From IMG/VR virus record IMGVR_UViG_3300002220_006884: 64,000 nt of DNA, one strand, 5' to 3'. The notes below the pieces were generated by a model that did not search any database, was not told the origin of the DNA, and saw only the letters and a program-made list of their open reading frames with translations. Positions within the stretch are counted from its first letter, which is position 1. Every line of letters starts with the position of its first letter. Below, piece by piece: positions 5,788 through 63,560 of the stretch. This stretch comes from an uncultured virus (IMG/VR IMGVR_UViG_3300002220_006884). Taxonomy: Duplodnaviria; Heunggongvirae; Uroviricota; Caudoviricetes. A program made the translations under genes and the position numbers.

Positions 5788-6102
5788 ATGAAAAAAATAA
5801 TAACTTTAATTTTAATGGCTGCTATAAGTGTAAATGCAAATGCTGGTGTTTTTAAAAAAGATTCAGGAGAAGTGATTAAGAAAAAAATTGAAATAGAAGA
5901 ATTAAATAAACAAATTAAAAAAGAAAAAGAAGAAATAAAGAAAAAGAAAAAAGAGTATAGTGCGGATAAGAGATATGGTTTACATAGCGAGCTAAATGGA
6001 GACAAATTTAGATTAAATAAAAGTGAAGAGCAACTAAAGGCAACAAAATATAAGTTAAAGCAAAAAAAGATAGAATTAAAACTTGCAAAAAAGAATAAGT
6101 GA
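5788..6102 (+). CDS. Exported Lys/Glu-rich coiled-coil protein
   Basis: Signal peptide ending ANA followed by a K/E-rich helix. Confidence 0.6.
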   Translation: MKKIITLILMAAISVNANAGVFKKDSGEVIKKKIEIEELNKQIKKEKEEIKKKKKEYSADKRYGLHSELNGDKFRLNKSEEQLKATKYKLKQKKIELKLAKKNK

Positions 6103-8940: not shown

Positions 8941-9708
8941 TTATTTAAAAATTTGATTAATAGCTTGTCGTTGTTTTTTAGAATCTCCCCCAACCAAATT
9001 AGAAATAGTCTGTTGTGGATTATCCATATTAATGCCAATTCTAGACAATCTTTCCTTTACTTCAGGTGGGGCTAAAGAAGTCATTTGTCCAATATAAGAT
9101 AATGGTTGATTAGAGAGTTGAGATATCTGGTCATTAGATAAAGAAGAAACATTTTTATTATTTAAATTATTAGGGATATTTCCATTAAAAGAAGGTGGTA
9201 TAGTTTGTTTATTAGGAATTGTTGAATTAGATGTTGAGTTGTAATCAACATTAGACTTATCAATAGAGTTATTGTTATTAGAATTAGAATCAGTAGCTTT
9301 CACTTCCCTATTCTCAGGATTATATTTTAATCCATTATTATCAATATGAATAACTGGTTTAGTTCCATCTTTAGGTGTAACTAGGTCATTAAATGTATTT
9401 TTGGCTGAACTTGAAGACAATGGGCTTGAAACATAAGGTTTAACAAAATTCATAACACCTGGAAAAAAATAAGAACCAGACCAAACAAAAATACAAATCA
9501 ACAATATTCTATTGAAAATAGATTTGAGAAGATTCTTAAAATTAAAAACAATATACATGAGTGCAACTGGAACAATCCAATATTTCCAATCAGTTAAAAA
9601 ATCTTCTGGCTTAATATCTGGCCTAAGATATAAAATAGCCCCGGTCAATATGGATAGTAATACTAGAAAAATAGCTAGTAAAAAGAAAAATTGCTTCATG
9701 TGTTTCAT
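8941..9708 (-). CDS. Membrane protein with Asn/Ser-rich soluble tail
   Basis: Three hydrophobic N-terminal segments. Confidence 0.6.
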   Translation of the reverse strand: MKHMKQFFFLLAIFLVLLSILTGAILYLRPDIKPEDFLTDWKYWIVPVALMYIVFNFKNLLKSIFNRILLICIFVWSGSYFFPGVMNFVKPYVSSPLSSSSAKNTFNDLVTPKDGTKPVIHIDNNGLKYNPENREVKATDSNSNNNNSIDKSNVDYNSTSNSTIPNKQTIPPSFNGNIPNNLNNKNVSSLSNDQISQLSNQPLSYIGQMTSLAPPEVKERLSRIGINMDNPQQTISNLVGGDSKKQRQAINQIFK

Positions 9709-24920: not shown

Positions 24921-25045
24921 AATGGAGTTTAGTATTATAATTATTGTAGTAAAAAATTAAGTTGATTCAAAATATATCTAACTGCATGATTTATGTAAAT
25001 ATAGAGAGTAGATAAATAAAATAATAAAATTTTTTAAAAATAGTG

Positions 25046-25074
25046 TTGACAAAAAAAGAAACATGAGATAAGAT
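25046..25074 (+). promoter_or_regulatory. Sigma70-type promoter of the tRNA-array leader
   Basis: TTGACA-17 nt-TAAGAT. Confidence 0.75.
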
Positions 25075-25107
25075 ACAAGAACTGAATAAATTTTTAGGAA
25101 AAAAGAA

Positions 25108-25194
25108 ATGACACAAACAAACGTTTTATTAGGCTTAAGATTAAGAGGGATAAGAATATTATCTCCTGGCAGTCTTTTGTTAAATGAAATGTGA
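25108..25194 (+). CDS. Putative attenuator leader peptide, 28 aa (MTQTNVLLGLRLRGIRILSPGSLLLNEM)
   Basis: AGGA RBS; codons 7-18 are TTA TTA GGC TTA AGA TTA AGA GGG ATA AGA ATA TTA. Confidence 0.75.
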   Translation: MTQTNVLLGLRLRGIRILSPGSLLLNEM

Positions 25195-25266
25195 GTAGTG
25201 CAAAACTAAAAATAGCACGAAAGAATAAACAAAAGACAGTCAAATAAAAATGGCTGTCTTTTTTTT
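25168..25266 (+). terminator. Attenuator: antiterminator (25168-25181 with 25228-25241) versus intrinsic terminator (25231-25266)
   Basis: GGCAGTCTTTTGTT pairs 13/14 with AACAAAAGACAGTC, which alternatively pairs with GGCTGTCTTTT ahead of a T8 run. Confidence 0.75.
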
Positions 25267-25277
25267 GCTCTTTAAAA
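25266..25277 (+). promoter_or_regulatory. boxA-like antitermination site
   Basis: TGCTCTTTAAAA versus rrn boxA TGCTCTTTAACA; related copies near 25985, 27230 and 60894. Confidence 0.55.
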
Positions 25278-25379
25278 ATTTGTTAAGATTTATGATATAA
25301 TTTAAGTATTACTTTAATGTTTCAATGTAAGTTATTGAAAATAAAAGTAAAAAAGAATTAAGAAAAATGAAGAAAACAC

Positions 25380-25408
25380 TGTACAAATTAAAAAAGACGG
25401 TGTATAAT
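25380..25408 (+). promoter_or_regulatory. tRNA cluster promoter (TGTACA-17-TATAAT); same type at 25913, 27158 and 27763
   Basis: Same -35 variant and 17 nt spacing in four copies. Confidence 0.7.
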
Positions 25409-25455
25409 TCAAACATCAACTGGAGATGACCGAACCAGTAGATTAAAAGGTTGAT

Positions 25456-25532
25456 GCGAGGGTAGCTCAGTTGGTTAGAGCAAAGGACTCATAATCCTTG
25501 GGTCGCGGGTTCGAATCCCGCCCCTCGCACCA
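25456..25532 (+). tRNA. tRNA with CAT anticodon (Ile2 reading AUA, or elongator Met)
   Basis: Full cloverleaf, loop CTCATAA, encoded CCA. Confidence 0.9.
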
Positions 25533-25538
25533 TATATT

Positions 25539-25625
25539 GCCTTGGTGGTGAAATAGGTAGACACAAGAGACTTAAAATCTCTCGCTTTAAACGGCATGCC
25601 GGTTCGATTCCGGCCCAAGGCACCA
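25539..25625 (+). tRNA. tRNA-Leu(TAA)
   Basis: Class II cloverleaf, loop CTTAAAA, CCA; identical to 60923..61009. Confidence 0.95.
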
Positions 25626-25718
25626 TATTAAAATATATAAGTTATGTTCACGTGGAACATAGGTAACTGAAGGTGTCCTGAAGCTTGTATGTTTCAATAT
25701 GGTGTAGAATTTAGTAAA

Positions 25719-25786
25719 TGGACTTAACTTGATTTAATCGCAGAAAGTTGGCGAGTTAAGTGAAATAAACAACTGCTGTGAATTTT
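25719..25786 (+). ncRNA. Putative pseudoknot RNA, copy 1 (copy 2 at 28001..28067)
   Basis: Stem ACTTAACTTG/CGAGTTAAGT with compensatory changes in copy 2; loop GCAG..GTTG can pair with downstream CAACTGC. Confidence 0.55.
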
Positions 25787-25860
25787 GCGGGTAAGCTCAA
25801 GGTGAGACGCCAGCCTTCCAAGCTGTGCTGAGTGGAGTTCGATTCTCCCTACCCGCTCCA
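25787..25860 (+). tRNA. tRNA-Gly(TCC), atypical short D-arm
   Basis: Acceptor GCGGGTA/TACCCGC, U73, CCA, loop CTTCCAA. Confidence 0.75.
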
Positions 25861-25903
25861 AATTTAAGAGTTTTTGAAAAAGAATTTTTAAATTTGTAAA
25901 GTT

Positions 25904-26097
25904 AAAAAAAGCTGTACAAAGTGTAGAAGTTAGTATATAATCTCTACATGGTTGAGAAAGAAAGCGAAAGCAGAAATCTCAACAGTTCTTTTAAAATTGA
26001 AGATAATTAAAAGCCTTGGTGGTGAAATTGGTAGACACAAGAGACTTAAAATCTCTCGCTTAACGGCGTGCTGGTTCGATTCCAGTCCAAGGCACCA
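25904..26097 (+). repeat. About 195 bp direct repeat (promoter, leader hairpin, boxA, tRNA-Leu); second copy 27150..27342
   Basis: Near-identical sequence in both copies. Confidence 0.9.
26013..26097 (+). tRNA. tRNA-Leu(TAA)
   Basis: Class II cloverleaf, CCA; identical to 27258..27342. Confidence 0.95.
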
Positions 26098-26179
26098 AAT
26101 TAAAGCACATTGCCTTAACCTTAATTGGAGAGGTCGCAAGAACTAAATAGTGTGTTATAATTTGATATAAAGATTAATT

Positions 26180-26283
26180 CGGCCTATAGTTAAATGGATA
26201 TAACACGAGCCTTCTTAAGTATCTTTGGATAAAGGGTATTTAAGAAGCTTGTATTCCAAGTTCGATTCTTGGTGGGCCGACCA
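26180..26283 (+). tRNA. tRNA-Arg(TCT) with 29 nt insert (26216-26244) between positions 36 and 37
   Basis: Removing the insert gives CGAGC-CTTCTAA-GCTTG; normal D, T and acceptor arms, CCA. Confidence 0.8.
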
Positions 26284-26397
26284 AAACAAGTTCTAAGAAA
26301 TTAGAACAGCTAGTAGGATTGACTAGAAATTCAATCAAACTGTTTCAGAAGTCTTGAGTGAGAAACAGAATTAACTCTGATAGCTCTATGAGTTAAA
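26284..26397 (+). ncRNA. Four-hairpin RNA following the insert-bearing tRNA-Arg, copy 1
   Basis: Identical to 61309..61422; hairpins GTTCTAA/TTAGAAC, CTAGT/ACTAG, CTGTTTC/GAAACAG, TTAACTC/GAGTTAA. Confidence 0.6.
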
Positions 26398-26402
26398 TTT
26401 TT

Positions 26403-26476
26403 GCGGGATTAGTTTAATGGTAAAACAGCAGATTTCCAATCTTCGGTCATCAGTTCGATTCTGATATCCCGCTCCA
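26403..26476 (+). tRNA. tRNA-Gly(TCC)
   Basis: Cloverleaf, loop TTTCCAA, U73, CCA. Confidence 0.88.
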
Positions 26477-26521
26477 ACTTTAAGTGTTTTTAAAATAAGA
26501 ATTTTTAAAATTGGATTTAAT

Positions 26522-26606
26522 GCCTTTGTGGTGAAATTGGTAGACACGCCTGACTCAAAATCAGGTTCCGCAAGGAGTGACGGTTCGAGTCCGTCCAAAG
26601 GCACCA
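26522..26606 (+). tRNA. tRNA-Leu(CAA)
   Basis: Class II cloverleaf, loop CTCAAAA, CCA. Confidence 0.95.
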
Positions 26607-26741
26607 TATTGAAGTATGCCCATCGTGGACTCTGTGAAACTCAGATAGTATATAAGGCGGTTCCTGCAAGCCTTGCACTGAAAATGCTGAGTAAGGTGTA
26701 TTTCAATATGGTGATAAAATACTGCACCAAACAGTAGAATT

Positions 26742-26808
26742 AATATTGTGGGCCAGTTGGTAGGCTTTTGTTGGTAAATGTCGTGGGTTCAAATCCCATC
26801 AATAATTA
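26742..26808 (+). ncRNA. tRNA-like element lacking a proper anticodon arm and CCA
   Basis: D-arm GCC-AGTTGGTA-GGC and T-arm GTGGG-TTCAAAT-CCCAT. Confidence 0.45.
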
Positions 26809-26821
26809 ATTCATCATTATA

Positions 26822-26961
26822 GGTTATTAGTTATACAAACATGCAGTTACGAGTGGTTAGTATGAACCTAAGAAATGCTGCCTAATAAGTAATTGAAAAA
26901 TTACCGCTTGCGGGCGTAAGGTTAGGGTGCAGGTATGGATTACTAAATATAACTAATAATT
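26822..26961 (+). ncRNA. Stem-enclosed candidate ncRNA
   Basis: 14 bp closing stem GGTTATTAGTTATA/TATAACTAATAATT around a GC-richer non-coding core. Confidence 0.45.
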
Positions 26962-26963
26962 TT

Positions 26964-27150
26964 TAGTGCTTTTTAGGCTGGTTGCGGCAACAGTCAGAAG
27001 GTACTGAGATTTGGCTTCGGAATTGAGTAACTTTGCCGAGTGAAAAATGAAGATGTTGCATTCGTCTAGCGGAAGGACTCCCCCACACAAGGGGGAAACA
27101 TAGGTTCGAATCCTATATGCAAATTTCAAAGATCAGCCTAAAAAGCATTA
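26964..27150 (+). ncRNA. Stem-enclosed RNA containing a tRNA-like domain (about 27055-27123)
   Basis: 20 bp closing stem with 3 G-U pairs; inner D-arm, CCCCC-ACACAA-GGGGG arm, T-arm ATAGG-TTCGAAT-CCTAT, no CCA. Confidence 0.55.
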
Positions 27151-27257
27151 AAAAAGCTGTACAAAGTGTAGAAGTTAATATATAATCTCTACATGGTTGA
27201 GAAAGAAGCGAAAGCATAAATCTTAACAAGTTCTTTTAAAATTGAAGATAATCAAAA

Positions 27258-27342
27258 GCCTTGGTGGTGAAATTGGTAGACACAAGAGACTTAAAATCTC
27301 TCGCTTAACGGCGTGCTGGTTCGATTCCAGTCCAAGGCACCA
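27258..27342 (+). tRNA. tRNA-Leu(TAA)
   Basis: Class II cloverleaf, CCA. Confidence 0.95.
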
Positions 27343-27466
27343 TATTAAAAGGTATTAATACAACTGGCAGACTTGTTCGGAGAAAGTGAAATCCAGAAGA
27401 ACGTTTAATGCTTTTTAATATGGTTGAGAAATAACTATTCTCCCCATGCAGAATCATGATTCTGCT

Positions 27467-27560
27467 GGCTCATAGTGATGAAATAGGTAGACATAGGCCA
27501 GTAAAACGGTCGGGTGAAATAAACACACCGTAAGGGTTCAACTCCCTTCTAAATGAGTTA
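27467..27560 (+). pseudogene. Degenerate tRNA-Leu-like element
   Basis: Leu-type D-arm GTGATGAAATAGGTAGACA, long variable arm, T-arm AAGGG-TTCAACT-CCCTT; bulged acceptor, aberrant anticodon loop, no CCA. Confidence 0.5.
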
Positions 27561-27806
27561 TAATGGTTTAATGATTAAAGCAGTCAAATAGGTTGGTTGC
27601 CATAAGGTTGAAAATTGAGTGTTGATTCCACTTGAAATTCTTACTCCTTATGTACGGGTTCAAGTCCCGTAGTGTTTAAATAGAGTACATAGAATCAATA
27701 TCGTGGTAATCTCTAACTGTGCTGAAAGAATACAATTGAAGTAAGCAATCATTGAAAAAAGCTGTACAAAAGTAGAAAATTAAAGTATAATTCTCTCTGT
27801 AGTAAC

Positions 27807-27906
27807 GCAAGACATGGCTTGGTGATTGTTCATGTCTGAGATAGCTTAAATCACATGCAAGACAGAGCTTGGTTGTTGAATCTGTCTAAGATAGCTTAAA
27901 CAATCC
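27807..27906 (+). ncRNA. Two tandem 50 nt H-type pseudoknot repeats
   Basis: Exact 50 nt period; both stems show compensatory substitutions between copies. Confidence 0.65.
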
Positions 27907-27920
27907 GCGTAAGAATAAAT

Positions 27921-27996
27921 GGTCTAGTAGCTCAATTGGAAGAGCAGCGCCCTCTAAAAGCGTTGGTTGTGGGATCGTACCCCATCTAGATCACCA
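27921..27996 (+). tRNA. Putative amber suppressor tRNA (anticodon CTA)
   Basis: 76 nt cloverleaf, GCGCC-CTCTAAA-AGCGT, CCA; atypical T-loop ATCGTAC. Confidence 0.75.
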
Positions 27997-28000
27997 GTTT

Positions 28001-28067
28001 TGGACTCAATTTGATTTTATTGCAGAAAGTTGGCGAATTGAGTGAAATAAACAACTGCTGTAAATTT
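28001..28067 (+). ncRNA. Putative pseudoknot RNA, copy 2
   Basis: Homolog of 25719..25786 with stem ACTCAATTTG/CGAATTGAGT. Confidence 0.55.
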
Positions 28068-28153
28068 GGCTTGTTAGCTTATGTGGGAAAGCAGTCGCCT
28101 CTAAAACGACCCTAGAAGGATTCGAAAGGATTCGAACTCCTTACAAGCCACCA
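28068..28153 (+). tRNA. Second putative amber suppressor tRNA (CTA) with 10 nt internal duplication
   Basis: GTCGC-CTCTAAA-ACGAC, acceptor GGCTTGT/ACAAGCC, CCA; AAGGATTCGA repeated twice. Confidence 0.65.
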
Positions 28154-28162
28154 TATATATCC

Positions 28163-28194
28163 GAAGGCAGATCAGAAATGGTCTGCCTTTTTTT
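28163..28194 (+). terminator. Intrinsic terminator ending tRNA cluster 1
   Basis: AAGGCAGATCA-GAAA-TGGTCTGCC followed by a T run. Confidence 0.85.
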
Positions 28195-28267
28195 ATTTAT
28201 ACTTTATAAATCTATATTGTGCATTAATGTGCAGTAAATAAATGATATAAACCATTTTCTAGATCAA

Positions 28268-28522
28268 TTGGTATTTCATTGTGATAAAGTATTAGTGAAA
28301 CAAACCATAACTGAAGAAATGAAGTTTAGCTTAAAGGTTCGTAAGATTAAGAGAACTAATAAAAAGGGCATGTATATTGCAAATCAAAACAGTATATTAC
28401 TTGACCCAAGACATGTAGATAGTTTCCTACATGAGTTAGGTCATTGGTATCACACTTGGTTTGAAAAGGATGTTAAAGAAGAACGACAAGCAGAAGAATT
28501 TGCTGAAAATTTTTTAATTTAG
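28268..28522 (+). CDS. Short HExxH (zincin-like) ORF, possibly a 5'-truncated fragment
   Basis: FLHELGHWYH...EEFAENF; no clear RBS or ATG. Confidence 0.45.
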   Translation: MVFHCDKVLVKQTITEEMKFSLKVRKIKRTNKKGMYIANQNSILLDPRHVDSFLHELGHWYHTWFEKDVKEERQAEEFAENFLI

Positions 28523-34410: not shown

Positions 34411-34605
34411 AAATTACGGCCTAGATAAAAGCTTTTTGAATACCTACAATGGAACTCCGAAATACTTACTAATAACGTTCAAGGTAAGGACCGGCCATGA
34501 AGGAATGTTAGTTGATAGCTGCGACAAGGGCAGAAGTAAATACTAAACAAGAAGGGTACTCTTGGTGCAAGTCCAAGCAAAAAGCTTTTATCTAGACCGT
34601 AATTT
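34411..34605 (+). ncRNA. Standalone candidate ncRNA closed by a 28 bp stem
   Basis: Arms 34411-34438 and 34578-34605 differ at one position; inner T-arm-like CTTGG-TGCAAGT-CCAAG; TATAAT upstream. Confidence 0.6.
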
Positions 34606-47544: not shown

Positions 47545-49868
47545 TTGGAGGAAATGATGAAATCATTGAAAAGAAGTATTGAATTTTATAAAAAAATGTT
47601 TTGTCTTTTTGGACAAATTACTTTTCTTTGTTTGTTCTTCTTTGTAATTAGTTTTGTTGAAAGTATTTGGCAAGGTGAACCCTTAACTAAATTTACCATT
47701 TTAACTGGATTAAGTGCTTTGGTGTTATCTCTTCCTTCCATTGACTATTATCTTAATTTTAAATTTCTTGAAAATATTTTTGATGATGTTCCAGAAATTC
47801 CACAACACTTATACTACTCACGTAAATCATTTTAAATTAATTAACTAATTGAAAGAAAGAAAAAATGTTTAATATTTTTAAAAAAGAAAACAAAACAAAA
47901 AAAGAAATGATCGGAACTATTGAAAGAATTGGTATTGCACCTAGTTCAGAGTTCACATTAAAATATTTTTTAAAAATGAAGGATTGCCCTACTGTTTTTG
48001 AATATTTTATGGCTGGTCAAAATAGTTCAATGCTTGATGTTATCTTTGCAAAAGAAGGTGATAATGTTTCTTTTATTTATGGTAAAAGAAATGATGTTGA
48101 ACAAGAGAGTTTTAAAAACTTGAGCTATAAAGTTTAAATGGGGTAATTTAAAATGATAAAAAATAATGATATTATTGATAAAGAAAATATGAATACTGTT
48201 GCCGTTGGAACAGTTTTAGTAGAATATTTTCCTGGTTCAAAAGCAAAAGAAAAAAATTATGCAATTATGACAAAAGATGGGGTGAAATATTTTCAATATA
48301 GTTGGTATTTGAAAAGGTTTGCATATGATCCAGCAGAAAATGGAATTGGTATCAGTTGGACTATGTTAGATATTACAAAATTCAAAGTAGTTGAAATTAT
48401 TAAATTAAAATAATTATAGAAGGTATTTAGCTACCTTTAAATATAATAATTTATTTAAATTTAATGATTAAATGATGATATAATATCAACATCAAAACAC
48501 ATTTGGAGTTAACATGTTATCTACAAAAGATTTAGCAGAAAAAACAAGTGATTCATATTCTTATAATCGTTATAATTCATGGGAAGCTTGTGTTAAAAAA
48601 TTAAGAGCATTTGGCTGTAATGATAAAGAAGTTGAATCAATTCTTCGTTCAAAGTGGACTCGTTGGGCAGCCGATTCTTCAAATAATCCTTATGGTAAGG
48701 CTTCTGGTGTTGATTTAATGAATTACATTAAAAAATGTGAAACAAGAGCTTCAATTGAACAATTAACTAAAGAATCAAAAATAGCTTAAAAGAAATTTAA
48801 ATGTATTAATCGTAGGAGGTATTATGAAATCAGTTGGAAAATCAAATGATGGTCGTCAAATTTATTTATTGTGGACCACTACTGAAGACTCTAAGTTAGT
48901 CCAAGTGGAAGCCCTTAAAAATACAACAAATGAAGCTTATTGGGTTCCAAAACTTGGGTTTACGGGTAATTTAGGCACAAGTCTTTTTGAAGAAAAAAGT
49001 GGTGCTTACTATGCTGAAAAACAGAAGTTGTTAAATAAAGAACAATCTTTAGAAAAAAGCAAACGAAACCTTGAGTTAACAAAGTAATTAATTATTAAAG
49101 GAATAAAAATGAAAACAAATCATCAACGTAATTTTAAAAGTTCTTATAATCCACAAAGTTATAGAACTAAATATGTAGTAGGTGGAAATAGTATTAAATC
49201 AGAATTAGCAGATAGGACGATTAGTGCTGCCGCTTATTTACCAGATACAGAGACTCTTAGTGCCAAAAAAAGAACTAGGGAAAACAAAGCTGGGGCAAAG
49301 AAATATGTTCGCACAAGAGTTAGGTTTCATGAAAATGATGTGACTAAAAAATTGAGTAAAGAATATATTTAAGCGAGTGTAAAGTAGTGGTATAATTCAT
49401 TGTATGAAACCATACAATTATTTAAAATGAATATTTCACAAGAAATTAAAAATAAAATTAATAAGCATTATGAAGGTGCTTATATTAACTATGCAGATTT
49501 GTCTAATCATCTAATGCTAAATAGAATTGATAGTAGTGACCCAATTGTTAAACATAATGGATACGATAAGCCATTTAATGAGTTATATCCTATTGTTTTT
49601 TACTATGAAGATAATTCTATGCTAATTATTACTGGGAATACAGTAGTCGTCGCTAATAAAAACGAGGAATAAGAAAATGAAAGAAATATTTTTAAATGAA
49701 AATGAGGATTGCCAATGGTTAATGGAAACACATTTGAAAAATAAAGATTATCCTAAGTTTAAATCTTTTGTATTACATGGTAATGAAGATTGTCTAGAAA
49801 AAGTAGAATTATATTCTAATTTAGAACCAACAATTACAGATATTCCAAGTGTTATCAGTTTTGATTAA
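47545..49868 (+). other. Run of small hypothetical genes (47545-47835 membrane, 47865-48137, 48153-48413, 48514-48789, 48824-49087, 49109-49372, 49400-49672, 49677-49868)
   Basis: Co-oriented short ORFs with RBS and repeated TG-x-TATAAT promoters. Confidence 0.6.
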
Positions 49869-60922: not shown

Positions 60923-61009
60923 GCCTTGGTGGTGAAATAGGTAGACACAAGAGACTTAAAATCTCTCGCTTTAAACGGCATGCCGGTTCGATTCCGGCCC
61001 AAGGCACCA
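60923..61009 (+). tRNA. tRNA-Leu(TAA)
   Basis: Identical to 25539..25625. Confidence 0.95.
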
Positions 61010-61118
61010 TATAAAAACACATCGAGGCAAAGGCCAAGCCTTGTTGTGAAACAGCCAAGCAATACGCGATTGCTTTGGTGGACGGTTAAACTCCGTTGAT
61101 GTGTTTTTATATGGTAAT

Positions 61119-61203: not shown

Positions 61204-61308
61204 CTGCCGATAGCTCAGATGGATAGAGCATCTGCCTTCTTAAGTATCTTTTCTTAAGGGTATTTAAGAAGCAGATGGTCGGGGGTTCGAATCCCTCTCG
61301 GCAGGCCA
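61204..61308 (+). tRNA. tRNA-Arg(TCT) with 28 nt insert (61241-61268) between positions 36 and 37
   Basis: Removing the insert gives TCTGC-CTTCTAA-GCAGA; otherwise canonical, CCA. Confidence 0.8.
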
Positions 61309-61422
61309 AAACAAGTTCTAAGAAATTAGAACAGCTAGTAGGATTGACTAGAAATTCAATCAAACTGTTTCAGAAGTCTTGAGTGAGAAACAGAATTAAC
61401 TCTGATAGCTCTATGAGTTAAA
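61309..61422 (+). ncRNA. Four-hairpin RNA following the insert-bearing tRNA-Arg, copy 2
   Basis: Identical to 26284..26397. Confidence 0.6.
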
Positions 61423-61427
61423 CTTTT

Positions 61428-61501
61428 GCGGGTAAGCACGAGGTGTGTCGCCAGCCTTCCAAGCTGCGCAGAGTGGAATTCGATTTTCCCTACCCGCTCC
61501 A
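61428..61501 (+). tRNA. tRNA-Gly(TCC), atypical short D-arm
   Basis: Homolog of 25787..25860 with compensatory T-stem change (GGAA/TTCC). Confidence 0.72.
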
Positions 61502-61549
61502 CTTTTAAGAATTTTTCAAAAAGAGTTTTTAAAAGTGGAAAAATTTAAT

Positions 61550-63041: not shown

Positions 63042-63163
63042 TTGTAATAGTTAGATAAATAGTATTTTATTATATCATATTTTAGTTATATTTGGTTTTA
63101 AAAAAGTTATAAAAAACTGTTGCCAAAAATTAAATTTTAAGTTATAGTATCGGTTATGTTAAA

Positions 63164-63294
63164 TTGCTTTCTAAACGGGTGATATTAACAATTAATTCCG
63201 TAGATTAGCTAGTCCCGTTAATTTGCTTGAGTTAGTTGAAAAGGTTAAAAATCCACTGGGCATGGTTCTTTAGTATCACCCGTTTAGAAAGTAA
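63164..63294 (+). ncRNA. Standalone candidate ncRNA closed by a 25 bp stem
   Basis: TTGCTTTCTAAACGGGTGATATTAA / TTAGTATCACCCGTTTAGAAAGTAA, deviations are G-U on the plus strand; TTGCCA-17-TATAGT promoter upstream. Confidence 0.6.
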
Positions 63295-63560
63295 CTATAG
63301 CTTGTGAGTGAAACAAGCACTAATCATTATTTTTGATAACATATCTAAGGATAGATGATTGCAAGTAACTTGAGAAGCTGTTTCAAATTATCAAGTTCTT
63401 CACAAAGATAAATCAAAATTCATTTTTAAAGTATCCTTCCACAACAAATCTATCTATTTAATAATCTAAGTATCTTTAGCTTATTACAATTCTTGTAGTT
63501 TAGAGAAAGTATAATGGTATTGTGATATAATATAAACATCATACTTAATGAGAGAAAATC

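Follow-up and report, generated by a model that had tools for sequence, protein, structure and literature searches.

Stems at the CCA ends of tRNA genes

Eight of 17 tRNA genes tested in IMGVR_UViG_3300002220_006884, a 64,000-nucleotide DNA stretch from an uncultured virus classified as Caudoviricetes in IMG/VR (hereafter the window, meaning always this whole stretch), are followed by a 17-bp stem that begins on the first C of their CCA end. Five are tRNA-Leu genes, where the stem encloses 37-74 nt, and three are tRNA-Gly genes, where it closes on a loop of 6-7 nt. We call the stem the frame, the enclosed RNA the insert and both together a cassette. They are listed below with the RNase III cuts predicted from the frame and with the number of positions, out of 20, that agree with the E. 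coli consensus for this enzyme.

25539..25625, plus strand: tRNA-Leu(UAA), same letters as 60923-61009; cassette 1 opens with its CCA
25623..25702, plus strand: cassette 1, 46-nt insert in a 17-bp frame; cuts predicted behind 25629 and 25697, giving a 68-nt RNA; 13/20
25858..25897, plus strand: insert-less frame behind tRNA-Gly 25787; 14/20
26013..26097, plus strand: tRNA-Leu(UAA), identical to 27258-27342
26095..26165, plus strand: cassette 5, 37-nt insert; predicted RNA 26102-26160; 15/20
26474..26514, plus strand: insert-less frame from tRNA-Gly(UCC) 26403 to tRNA-Leu(CAA) 26522; 14/20
26604..26711, plus strand: cassette 2, after tRNA-Leu(CAA), 74-nt insert; predicted RNA 26611-26706; 15/20
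27340..27423, plus strand: cassette 3, 50-nt insert; predicted RNA 27347-27418; 15/20
61007..61114, plus strand: cassette 4, 74-nt tRNA-like insert; predicted RNA 61014-61109; 14/20
61499..61538, plus strand: insert-less frame from tRNA-Gly 61429 to tRNA-Leu(CAA) 61550; 15/20

The tRNA-Gly gene at 25787 scores just below the Rfam cut-off, and its repeat at 61429 was recognised by that likeness alone. Long stems behind four of the Leu genes had been described in an earlier note on this DNA, and all four were recovered (25621-25641/25684-25704, 26602-26620/26695-26713, 27339-27358/27405-27424 and 61006-61025/61096-61115), with folding z-scores against shuffled sequences of -5.1, -4.1, -4.7 and -6.1. 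Their loops, put at 40-75 nt, measure 42, 74, 46 and 70 nt, and the deviations from Watson-Crick pairing are, as claimed, nearly all G-U (8 G-U and one A-C mismatch in 80 positions). The identity of the tRNA genes at 25539 and 60923, and of those at 26013 and 27258, holds letter by letter, the inserts are richer in GC than the window (0.40-0.50 vs 0.28), and an insert-less stem lies in the same CCA register after all three Gly genes. The stem at 26095-26165 exists too but is not the weaker one it was taken for, being a full member with 15 of the 20 consensus positions and a z-score of -3.3. In the window the five filled stems all follow Leu genes, but the frame is not specific to Leu and elsewhere follows many isotypes; one of the six Leu genes of the window (61550) has no stem and its trailer folds with a z-score of only -0.2.

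In the same fixed register, a 17-bp stem was found at 5 of 671 other CCA trinucleotides on the plus strand and at 2 of 867 on the minus strand (4 mirror images set aside). A hand count over the eight 17-bp cores gave 18 G-U, 3 A-C and 3 other mismatches. The 3' arms of the window end short of the next tRNA and do not overlap it.

The frame in other genomes

The frame belongs to a large family with the consensus CCAUAUU^GAARCACAUU...AGUGUGYUUCAA^UAUGG, where ^ marks the predicted cuts. Three pattern scans of viral and metagenome contigs gave at least 120, at least 128 and at least 128 stretches, the first pattern being loose, so that many of its matches are due to chance. A stricter pattern matched 3 stretches in 185,579 prokaryote genomes, all of them on contigs of metagenome-assembled genomes. 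From 420 loci in viral and metagenome contigs, plus the window, at least 452 distinct cassettes were catalogued with a detector that required at least 13 of 17 Watson-Crick pairs and at least 10 of 17 consensus-like arm letters; these thresholds bias the catalogue towards typical members, and a few entries pair arms that belong to neighbouring cassettes.

The register on the tRNA is nearly exact, 243 of the 256 catalogued cassettes behind a called tRNA beginning precisely on its CCA. The upstream isotypes are many, with Lys, Leu, Glu, Gln and Thr the commonest, and upstream RNAs other than tRNA include permuted transfer-messenger RNA (tmRNA) and GOLLD. Among the 158 cassettes with no upstream tRNA, a helix closes just before the N-CCA-like start in 99, versus 112 of 316 control positions. 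The other end is often registered as well: in 77 of 449 cassettes the 3' arm closes with the very GG that opens the next tRNA, and a further 11 directly adjoin the tRNA that follows. The stem pairs as RNA. In the 17-bp cores of 270 cassettes oriented by the strand of their tRNA we counted 4142 Watson-Crick pairs, 374 G-U, 50 A-C and 24 others under strand-neutral scoring, and the arms covary.

Five long contigs carrying the frame, two of them complete, all encode a T4-type capsid protein and none encodes an RNase III gene. No CCA cassette was present behind the tRNAs at the T4, PA5oct, CBB, Kp24, RHph_TM30, XM05 and XacN1 loci or at two plasmid loci, and a BLAST search of GenBank phages with three tandem cassettes returned chance matches only.

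Two observations on the catalogued loci stand apart from these counts. At L071 (1213-1503) and L029 (2305-2587) the intervening segment of phage permuted tmRNA genes is enclosed by a stem of this kind that starts on a CCA. At L013 and L071 some of the RNAs upstream of cassettes resemble, by eye, minimal ribozymes of the hepatitis delta virus (HDV) type and are candidates for such ribozymes.

Match to the RNase III consensus

The E. coli RNase III consensus has been given as WNAGWGNNCWUNNN^NAWGNNCWCUNW (PMC4357697). Over 270 cassettes the frame fits it on both strands in a single register, with 85% agreement across 20 positions, while 13 other registers gave 20-54%. The 107 cassettes that match none of the seed patterns still agree at 81% in that register, and shuffling the order of the pairs within the stems lowered the score from the observed 16.2 of 20 to 7.4 +/- 0.24. 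Arm position 16 is U-G in 196 of the 270 cassettes and position 17 is U-A in 242, the combination described as the optimal distal box in PMC1540722. The box preferences of RNase III substrates are found in one register of the frame.

According to the same source, an 11-bp helix with one box set is enough, and the loop does not determine where the enzyme cuts and requires no particular sequence (PMC1540722), which leaves the inserts free to vary. The helix asked for there (at least 11 bp from cut to loop and about two turns overall) is provided by the 17-bp core, of which about 10-12 bp lie inside the predicted cut, and the total stem length is at the short end for an RNase III substrate. We infer from these features of the letters that the window stems are RNase III sites and that they would be cleaved.

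Phage T5 and other cultured phages

The same layout is found in phage T5. Its rnaIII (AY543070, 30284-30389), annotated as a "stable RNA with unknown functions", lies between RNA I and tRNA-His, and a fully paired 17-bp stem runs from the CCA of RNA I to the 5' GG of tRNA-His. The annotated RNA III starts at base 8 of one arm and stops 5 nt short of where the other arm finishes, leaving a 2-nt 3' overhang. These ends are exactly the cut register that had been predicted beforehand. T5 RNA2H (2-nt overhang) and RNA IV (1-nt) also end in the middle of a helix; RNA I does not. The register of T5 RNA III, from an upstream CCA to the start of a downstream RNA with a structured RNA enclosed, is shared by the five filled cassettes of the window, whose frames likewise begin on the upstream CCA. 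The inserts themselves are unrelated: comparison of the window inserts with the T5 locus gave only chance matches of 13-15 bases and no homology of sequence or fold to RNA III. T5 RNA III differs further in that its record names no processing enzyme and describes a single RNA rather than a family of exchangeable cassettes.

Several other cultured enterobacterial phages have the frame. CCA-started cassettes lie between tRNA-Gln and tRNA-His in EcS1, CHI14, JD18, Moon (15/20) and CR8 (17/20), while in Bas42 (AndreasVesalius), Melville, PG7 and IT22 the stem precedes tRNA-His and does not stand on the CCA of a tRNA, and PEi20 has an insert-less form. The Gln-insert-His segment of EcS1, used as query, was covered by at least 80% in 145 of 50,697 GenBank phage records. 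The presence of the frame in T5 and in these phages makes both the processing model and the function of the inserts testable in E. coli K-12.

Another stem of T5, at 9429-9533 of locus L434, is unannotated; it pairs at 16 of 17 bp, scores 14/20, encloses about 70 nt just before tRNA-Tyr and is a candidate small RNA.

The inserts

The 449 inserts analysed have a median length of 51 nt and a GC content of 49%. They fall into at least 266 clusters, of which 180 are singletons and 86 are families that recur across contigs, and 57 of these 86 sit behind more than one class of upstream RNA (counting "no tRNA" as one class). In 14 of the 22 families with at least 4 members there is a compensatory inner pair, amounting to 34 of 239 pairs. 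A motif resembling a T-arm terminates 28 of the 449 inserts.

Clustering of the loops across genomes, suggested at the outset as a check, found relatives for window inserts 3, 4 and 5 and none, beyond close strains, for inserts 1 and 2. Insert 3 is 77% identical over 48 nt to one in locus L371, with one compensatory change within the insert, and a degenerate pattern built for it matched 0 viral contigs. Insert 5 has sequence kin in the viral contigs L014, L125, L136 and L141; across this four-locus family its inner helix has no compensatory change and several breaks. Insert 4 consists of a short first hairpin, a closed hairpin at the anticodon position, a long arm and a T-arm, and has look-alikes in L003, L102, L120, L126 and L193 in which the T-arm covaries at low sequence identity. 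We do not regard it as a tRNA. ARAGORN called it only at a relaxed threshold, with no call at default settings or by Rfam, and in spite of the T-arm the hairpin at the anticodon position is closed and the predicted end is not CCA. The sequencing run X7 contains inserts 1 and 2, with one listed substitution each, one in a loop and the other at a wobble-compatible site. No insert swap between related strains was seen among the matches listed for four runs.

No Rfam family was assigned to the inserts in the window or in 8 cultured-phage loci, nor, at 20 carrier loci, among 150 of the 185 result rows, which named tRNA, GOLLD, tmRNA and group I intron. Nothing pointing to base-pairing of inserts with host targets turned up, no target-complementarity search having been made. 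The inserts have compact folds with conserved loops, and for this reason we prefer to see them as protein-binding decoys or tRNA mimics directed against host RNA-binding, translation or defence proteins rather than as base-pairing small RNAs, a tentative view in which we have somewhat less than even confidence.

Processing model and alternatives

Taken together, these features suggest that the stems are probably host RNase III sites that serve as a standard frame within a multi-RNA precursor. Host RNase III would cut 4 nt past the CCA (CCAUAUU^) and, in the 3' arm, ahead of its last 5 nt (^UAUGG), after which the outer 5-bp duplex would melt. The upstream tRNA would be left with a 4-nt trailer for exonucleases to trim, and a downstream tRNA whose GG ends the 3' arm would be left with a 3-nt leader for RNase P to remove; both steps are established tRNA pathways. 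In the 77 cassettes with a shared GG, one frame's cut would also free the 5' end of the next tRNA. The released insert would be an RNA of 55-100 nt whose ends pair in a 10-bp stem and leave a 2-nt 3' overhang, matching the annotation of T5 RNA III, and the insert-less Gly hairpins would act as punctuation alone.

The proposal of the earlier note, in which one double-strand cut both matures the tRNA 3' end and frees a variable small RNA, is therefore only partly retained. The idea that the small RNA is released has good support in the single-register consensus match and in the T5 RNA III ends lying on the predicted cuts. The cut would start maturation of the tRNA 3' end but not complete it, because the predicted product is CCA plus 4 nt and exonucleases must finish the end. 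E. coli RNase III is reported to take part in T4 tRNA maturation (review, PMC4810235). As RNase III would read the stem and not the loop, the inserts would be exchangeable, probably via recombination at the conserved tRNA and arm sequences; the T4 tRNA region is moved by this route through a homing endonuclease that targets tRNA (PMC2330249).

Several facts weigh against this reading. The T5 stem agrees with the RNase III consensus at only 11 of 20 positions, and the ends of T5 RNA III are those of an annotation and may have been inferred rather than mapped. The window stems (13-15/20) are under the family mean of 16.2, the consensus is that of E. coli, which need not be the host, and its own source calls it weak (PMC4357697). 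Among the inserts, one member or more fails to form 25 of the 239 inner pairs, the covariation counts ignore kinship, 180 of the 266 clusters are singletons, and window inserts 1 and 2 are without a relative. Finally, CHI14-group phages survive laboratory deletions of 6.5-10 kb that remove up to 13 tRNA genes (PMC5449768); these deletions probably also take away the cassette, and the region is dispensable in the laboratory.

That dispensability would suit another explanation, in which the stem is RNase III punctuation for tRNA maturation only and the inserts are remnants of decayed tRNAs or selfish passengers shielded by the closing stem. The insert-less forms (the three Gly hairpins and PEi20), the predominance of singleton clusters and the T-arm-like ends of a minority of inserts are what it would lead one to expect. 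We consider it unlikely, since insert families recur and most of them stand behind more than one kind of upstream RNA, inner pairs change in a compensatory way, the Gln-insert-His segment persists in so many phage records, and the inserts remain GC-richer than the 28%-GC element around them. The stem might instead bind a protein other than RNase III or be cut by an enzyme of the element itself, acting as a lock that times tRNA maturation. It does hide C74-C75 and often G1-G2 of the next tRNA, and an element of which the examined DNA is a 64-kb stretch could encode its own nuclease elsewhere. We find this very improbable given that conservation falls on the letters of the RNase III consensus, in a single register, that the T5 stable-RNA ends have the 2-nt overhang geometry, and that two complete carrier genomes have no RNase III gene.

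Conserved inverted ends around variable cores, tandem copies and different inserts behind identical tRNA genes also recall a mobile cassette, the arms being DNA-level inverted repeats of a unit, like a miniature inverted-repeat transposable element (MITE) or an integron cassette, that inserts at tRNA ends. There is hardly any chance of this: no target-site duplication exceeds the control (a 4-mer is shared at the unextended boundary in 0 of 428 cassettes), G-U pairs on the transcribed strand far outnumber A-C (374 vs 50), and the arms vary in a compensatory way without being letter-exact. A MITE proper was rejected for having neither target-site duplications nor letter-exact inverted repeats. 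An intrinsic terminator was also discarded, as a terminator scan picked out none of the cassettes at 25.6-27.4 kb and at least 5 T occur in the next 8 bases in 46 of 428 cassettes. So was a theta or HDV-like ribozyme, as no Rfam ribozyme family matched 25000-28300 up to E = 10 and the trailer folds as a long helix.

Relation to known systems

RNase III stems and phage stable RNAs are already known, and T5 RNA III has the same layout as the cassettes. The inner helix of the frame (AAR-CA-CAUU ... AGUG-UG-YUU) resembles T7 5860-5887 (AAG-GU-CAUU ... AGUG-GC-CUU), which we take to be the RNase III site R1.1 of the early RNA. In T7, however, the helix is closed by a short loop and processes an mRNA, whereas the cassette has a variable structured RNA for its loop and an outer end that keeps register with tRNA ends. 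As in rRNA operons, where RNase III processing stems bracket 16S and 23S rRNA, the cassette stem brackets a released RNA. The species 1 and 2 RNAs of T4 (rnaC and rnaD), stable RNAs with no known function, resemble the inserts in coming from a phage tRNA cluster, but neither lies within a CCA-started stem. Theta ribozymes (minimal HDV-like), proposed to process 3' trailers, share with the cassettes the position directly behind phage tRNA ends (PMC10879173); they self-cleave and conserve a fold, while the cassettes conserve a simple helix that a protein enzyme would cut.

A literature search that was thin on older T4 and T5 papers and on subscription journals turned up no account of the standard frame, of its registration on tRNA ends at both sides or of an insert repertoire of this size. 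What the window adds is the exact register, the links to T5 and cultured phages, the co-occurrence of insert-less and filled forms, and a carrier element that is possibly not a phage. The old question of the T5 and T4 "stable RNAs of unknown function" gains in this way a predicted biogenesis rule and a comparative set of at least 266 insert clusters, and the frame is a search handle for small phage RNAs missing from Rfam. It may also be usable as a compact bacterial expression cassette for structured RNAs. If the inserts are host-protein decoys, tRNA arrays double as RNA effector loci. More speculatively, and we would sooner doubt this than believe it, large phages and giant conjugative elements might share a plug-in RNA system, with an RNase III frame on tRNA ends expressing small RNAs of hundreds of families that act as decoys or inhibitors, swapped between unrelated elements as a fast-evolving counter-defence kit and with some array modules becoming circles. 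T5's unexplained stable RNAs would then be its first described members.

The element and other features of the window

The window has a GC content of 28% and its open reading frames (ORFs) are mostly without assignment. It also encodes a TnpB-like protein, HNH-type nucleases and a DotB-like ATPase. The top plasmid matches of the latter, at 36-39% identity, include 0.9-Mb plasmids of Pseudomonas and Vibrio, and a search of viral contigs found no relative of it. None of the 33 window proteins scanned against PHROGs matched a virion-category family. We take the window to be part of a giant mobile element, for which a conjugative megaplasmid is favoured over a phage. Sequencing runs containing about half or more of the array's words came from hydrocarbon, mine drainage and landfill metagenomes, or had no label.

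Two further features belong to the first tRNA array:

25380..25408, plus strand: sigma-70-like promoter (TGTACA-17-TATAAT), a consensus match only
26960..27154, plus strand: 24-bp stem with the RNase III consensus in the opposite orientation (18 of 24 scored positions), around a degenerate tRNA-like module and not starting on a CCA

The hexamers TGTACA/TATAAT are repeated at 25913, 27158 and 27763, giving four promoter-like sites in the array at 25.4-28.2 kb.

Two different tRNA-Arg(UCU) genes (26180-26283 and 61204-61308) share a near-identical insertion of 28-29 nt in the anticodon loop, which locks the anticodon into a hairpin of 16 bp. In run X7 a contig spans 26068-26338 with a 29-base gap and one of run X3 matches without difference, so that the insertion looks polymorphic. 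Its pattern matched 29 unrelated stretches in viral contigs and no similar gene. Behind both Arg genes there is a near-identical structured segment of 120 nt (26284-26402 and 61309-61428) that likely contains an H-type pseudoknot and has no Rfam match.

Some contigs are exactly 30 bases longer than the span they cover, at 26827-26953, 27567-27753, 27575-27750 and 26793-26960, an excess that is the mark of a circle. They come from two runs labelled as RNA, X20 and X11 (the latter classed as probably DNA), with going-back joints listed at 26953-26827 and 27750-27575; the DNA runs X3 and X7 cross these places linearly. The junctions do not fit a clean 2-nt overhang, and the contigs would stem either from circular RNAs or from ligation in library preparation.

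Directly before a tRNA, at 25719-25786 and again at 28001-28066, lies a hairpin whose two copies show compensatory changes and which may form a pseudoknot. Two tRNAs with a CUA anticodon (27921-27996 and 28068-28153) have a promoter-like site to themselves. Of 61 ORFs, only 2 end in TAG; even with these tRNAs there is no support for recoding, as alternative codes lift the coding density only from 0.63 to 0.64-0.67. Degenerate tRNA-like modules occur at 26742-26807, 27055-27124, 27469-27556 and 27577-27678, one of them with a long anticodon-loop insert. Outside the tRNA arrays, inverted repeats of 27-28 bp flank non-coding segments of 139 and 81 nt at 34411-34605 and 63162-63296, and seven ORFs of similar size (86-96 aa, no Pfam match) follow one another at 47545-49672.

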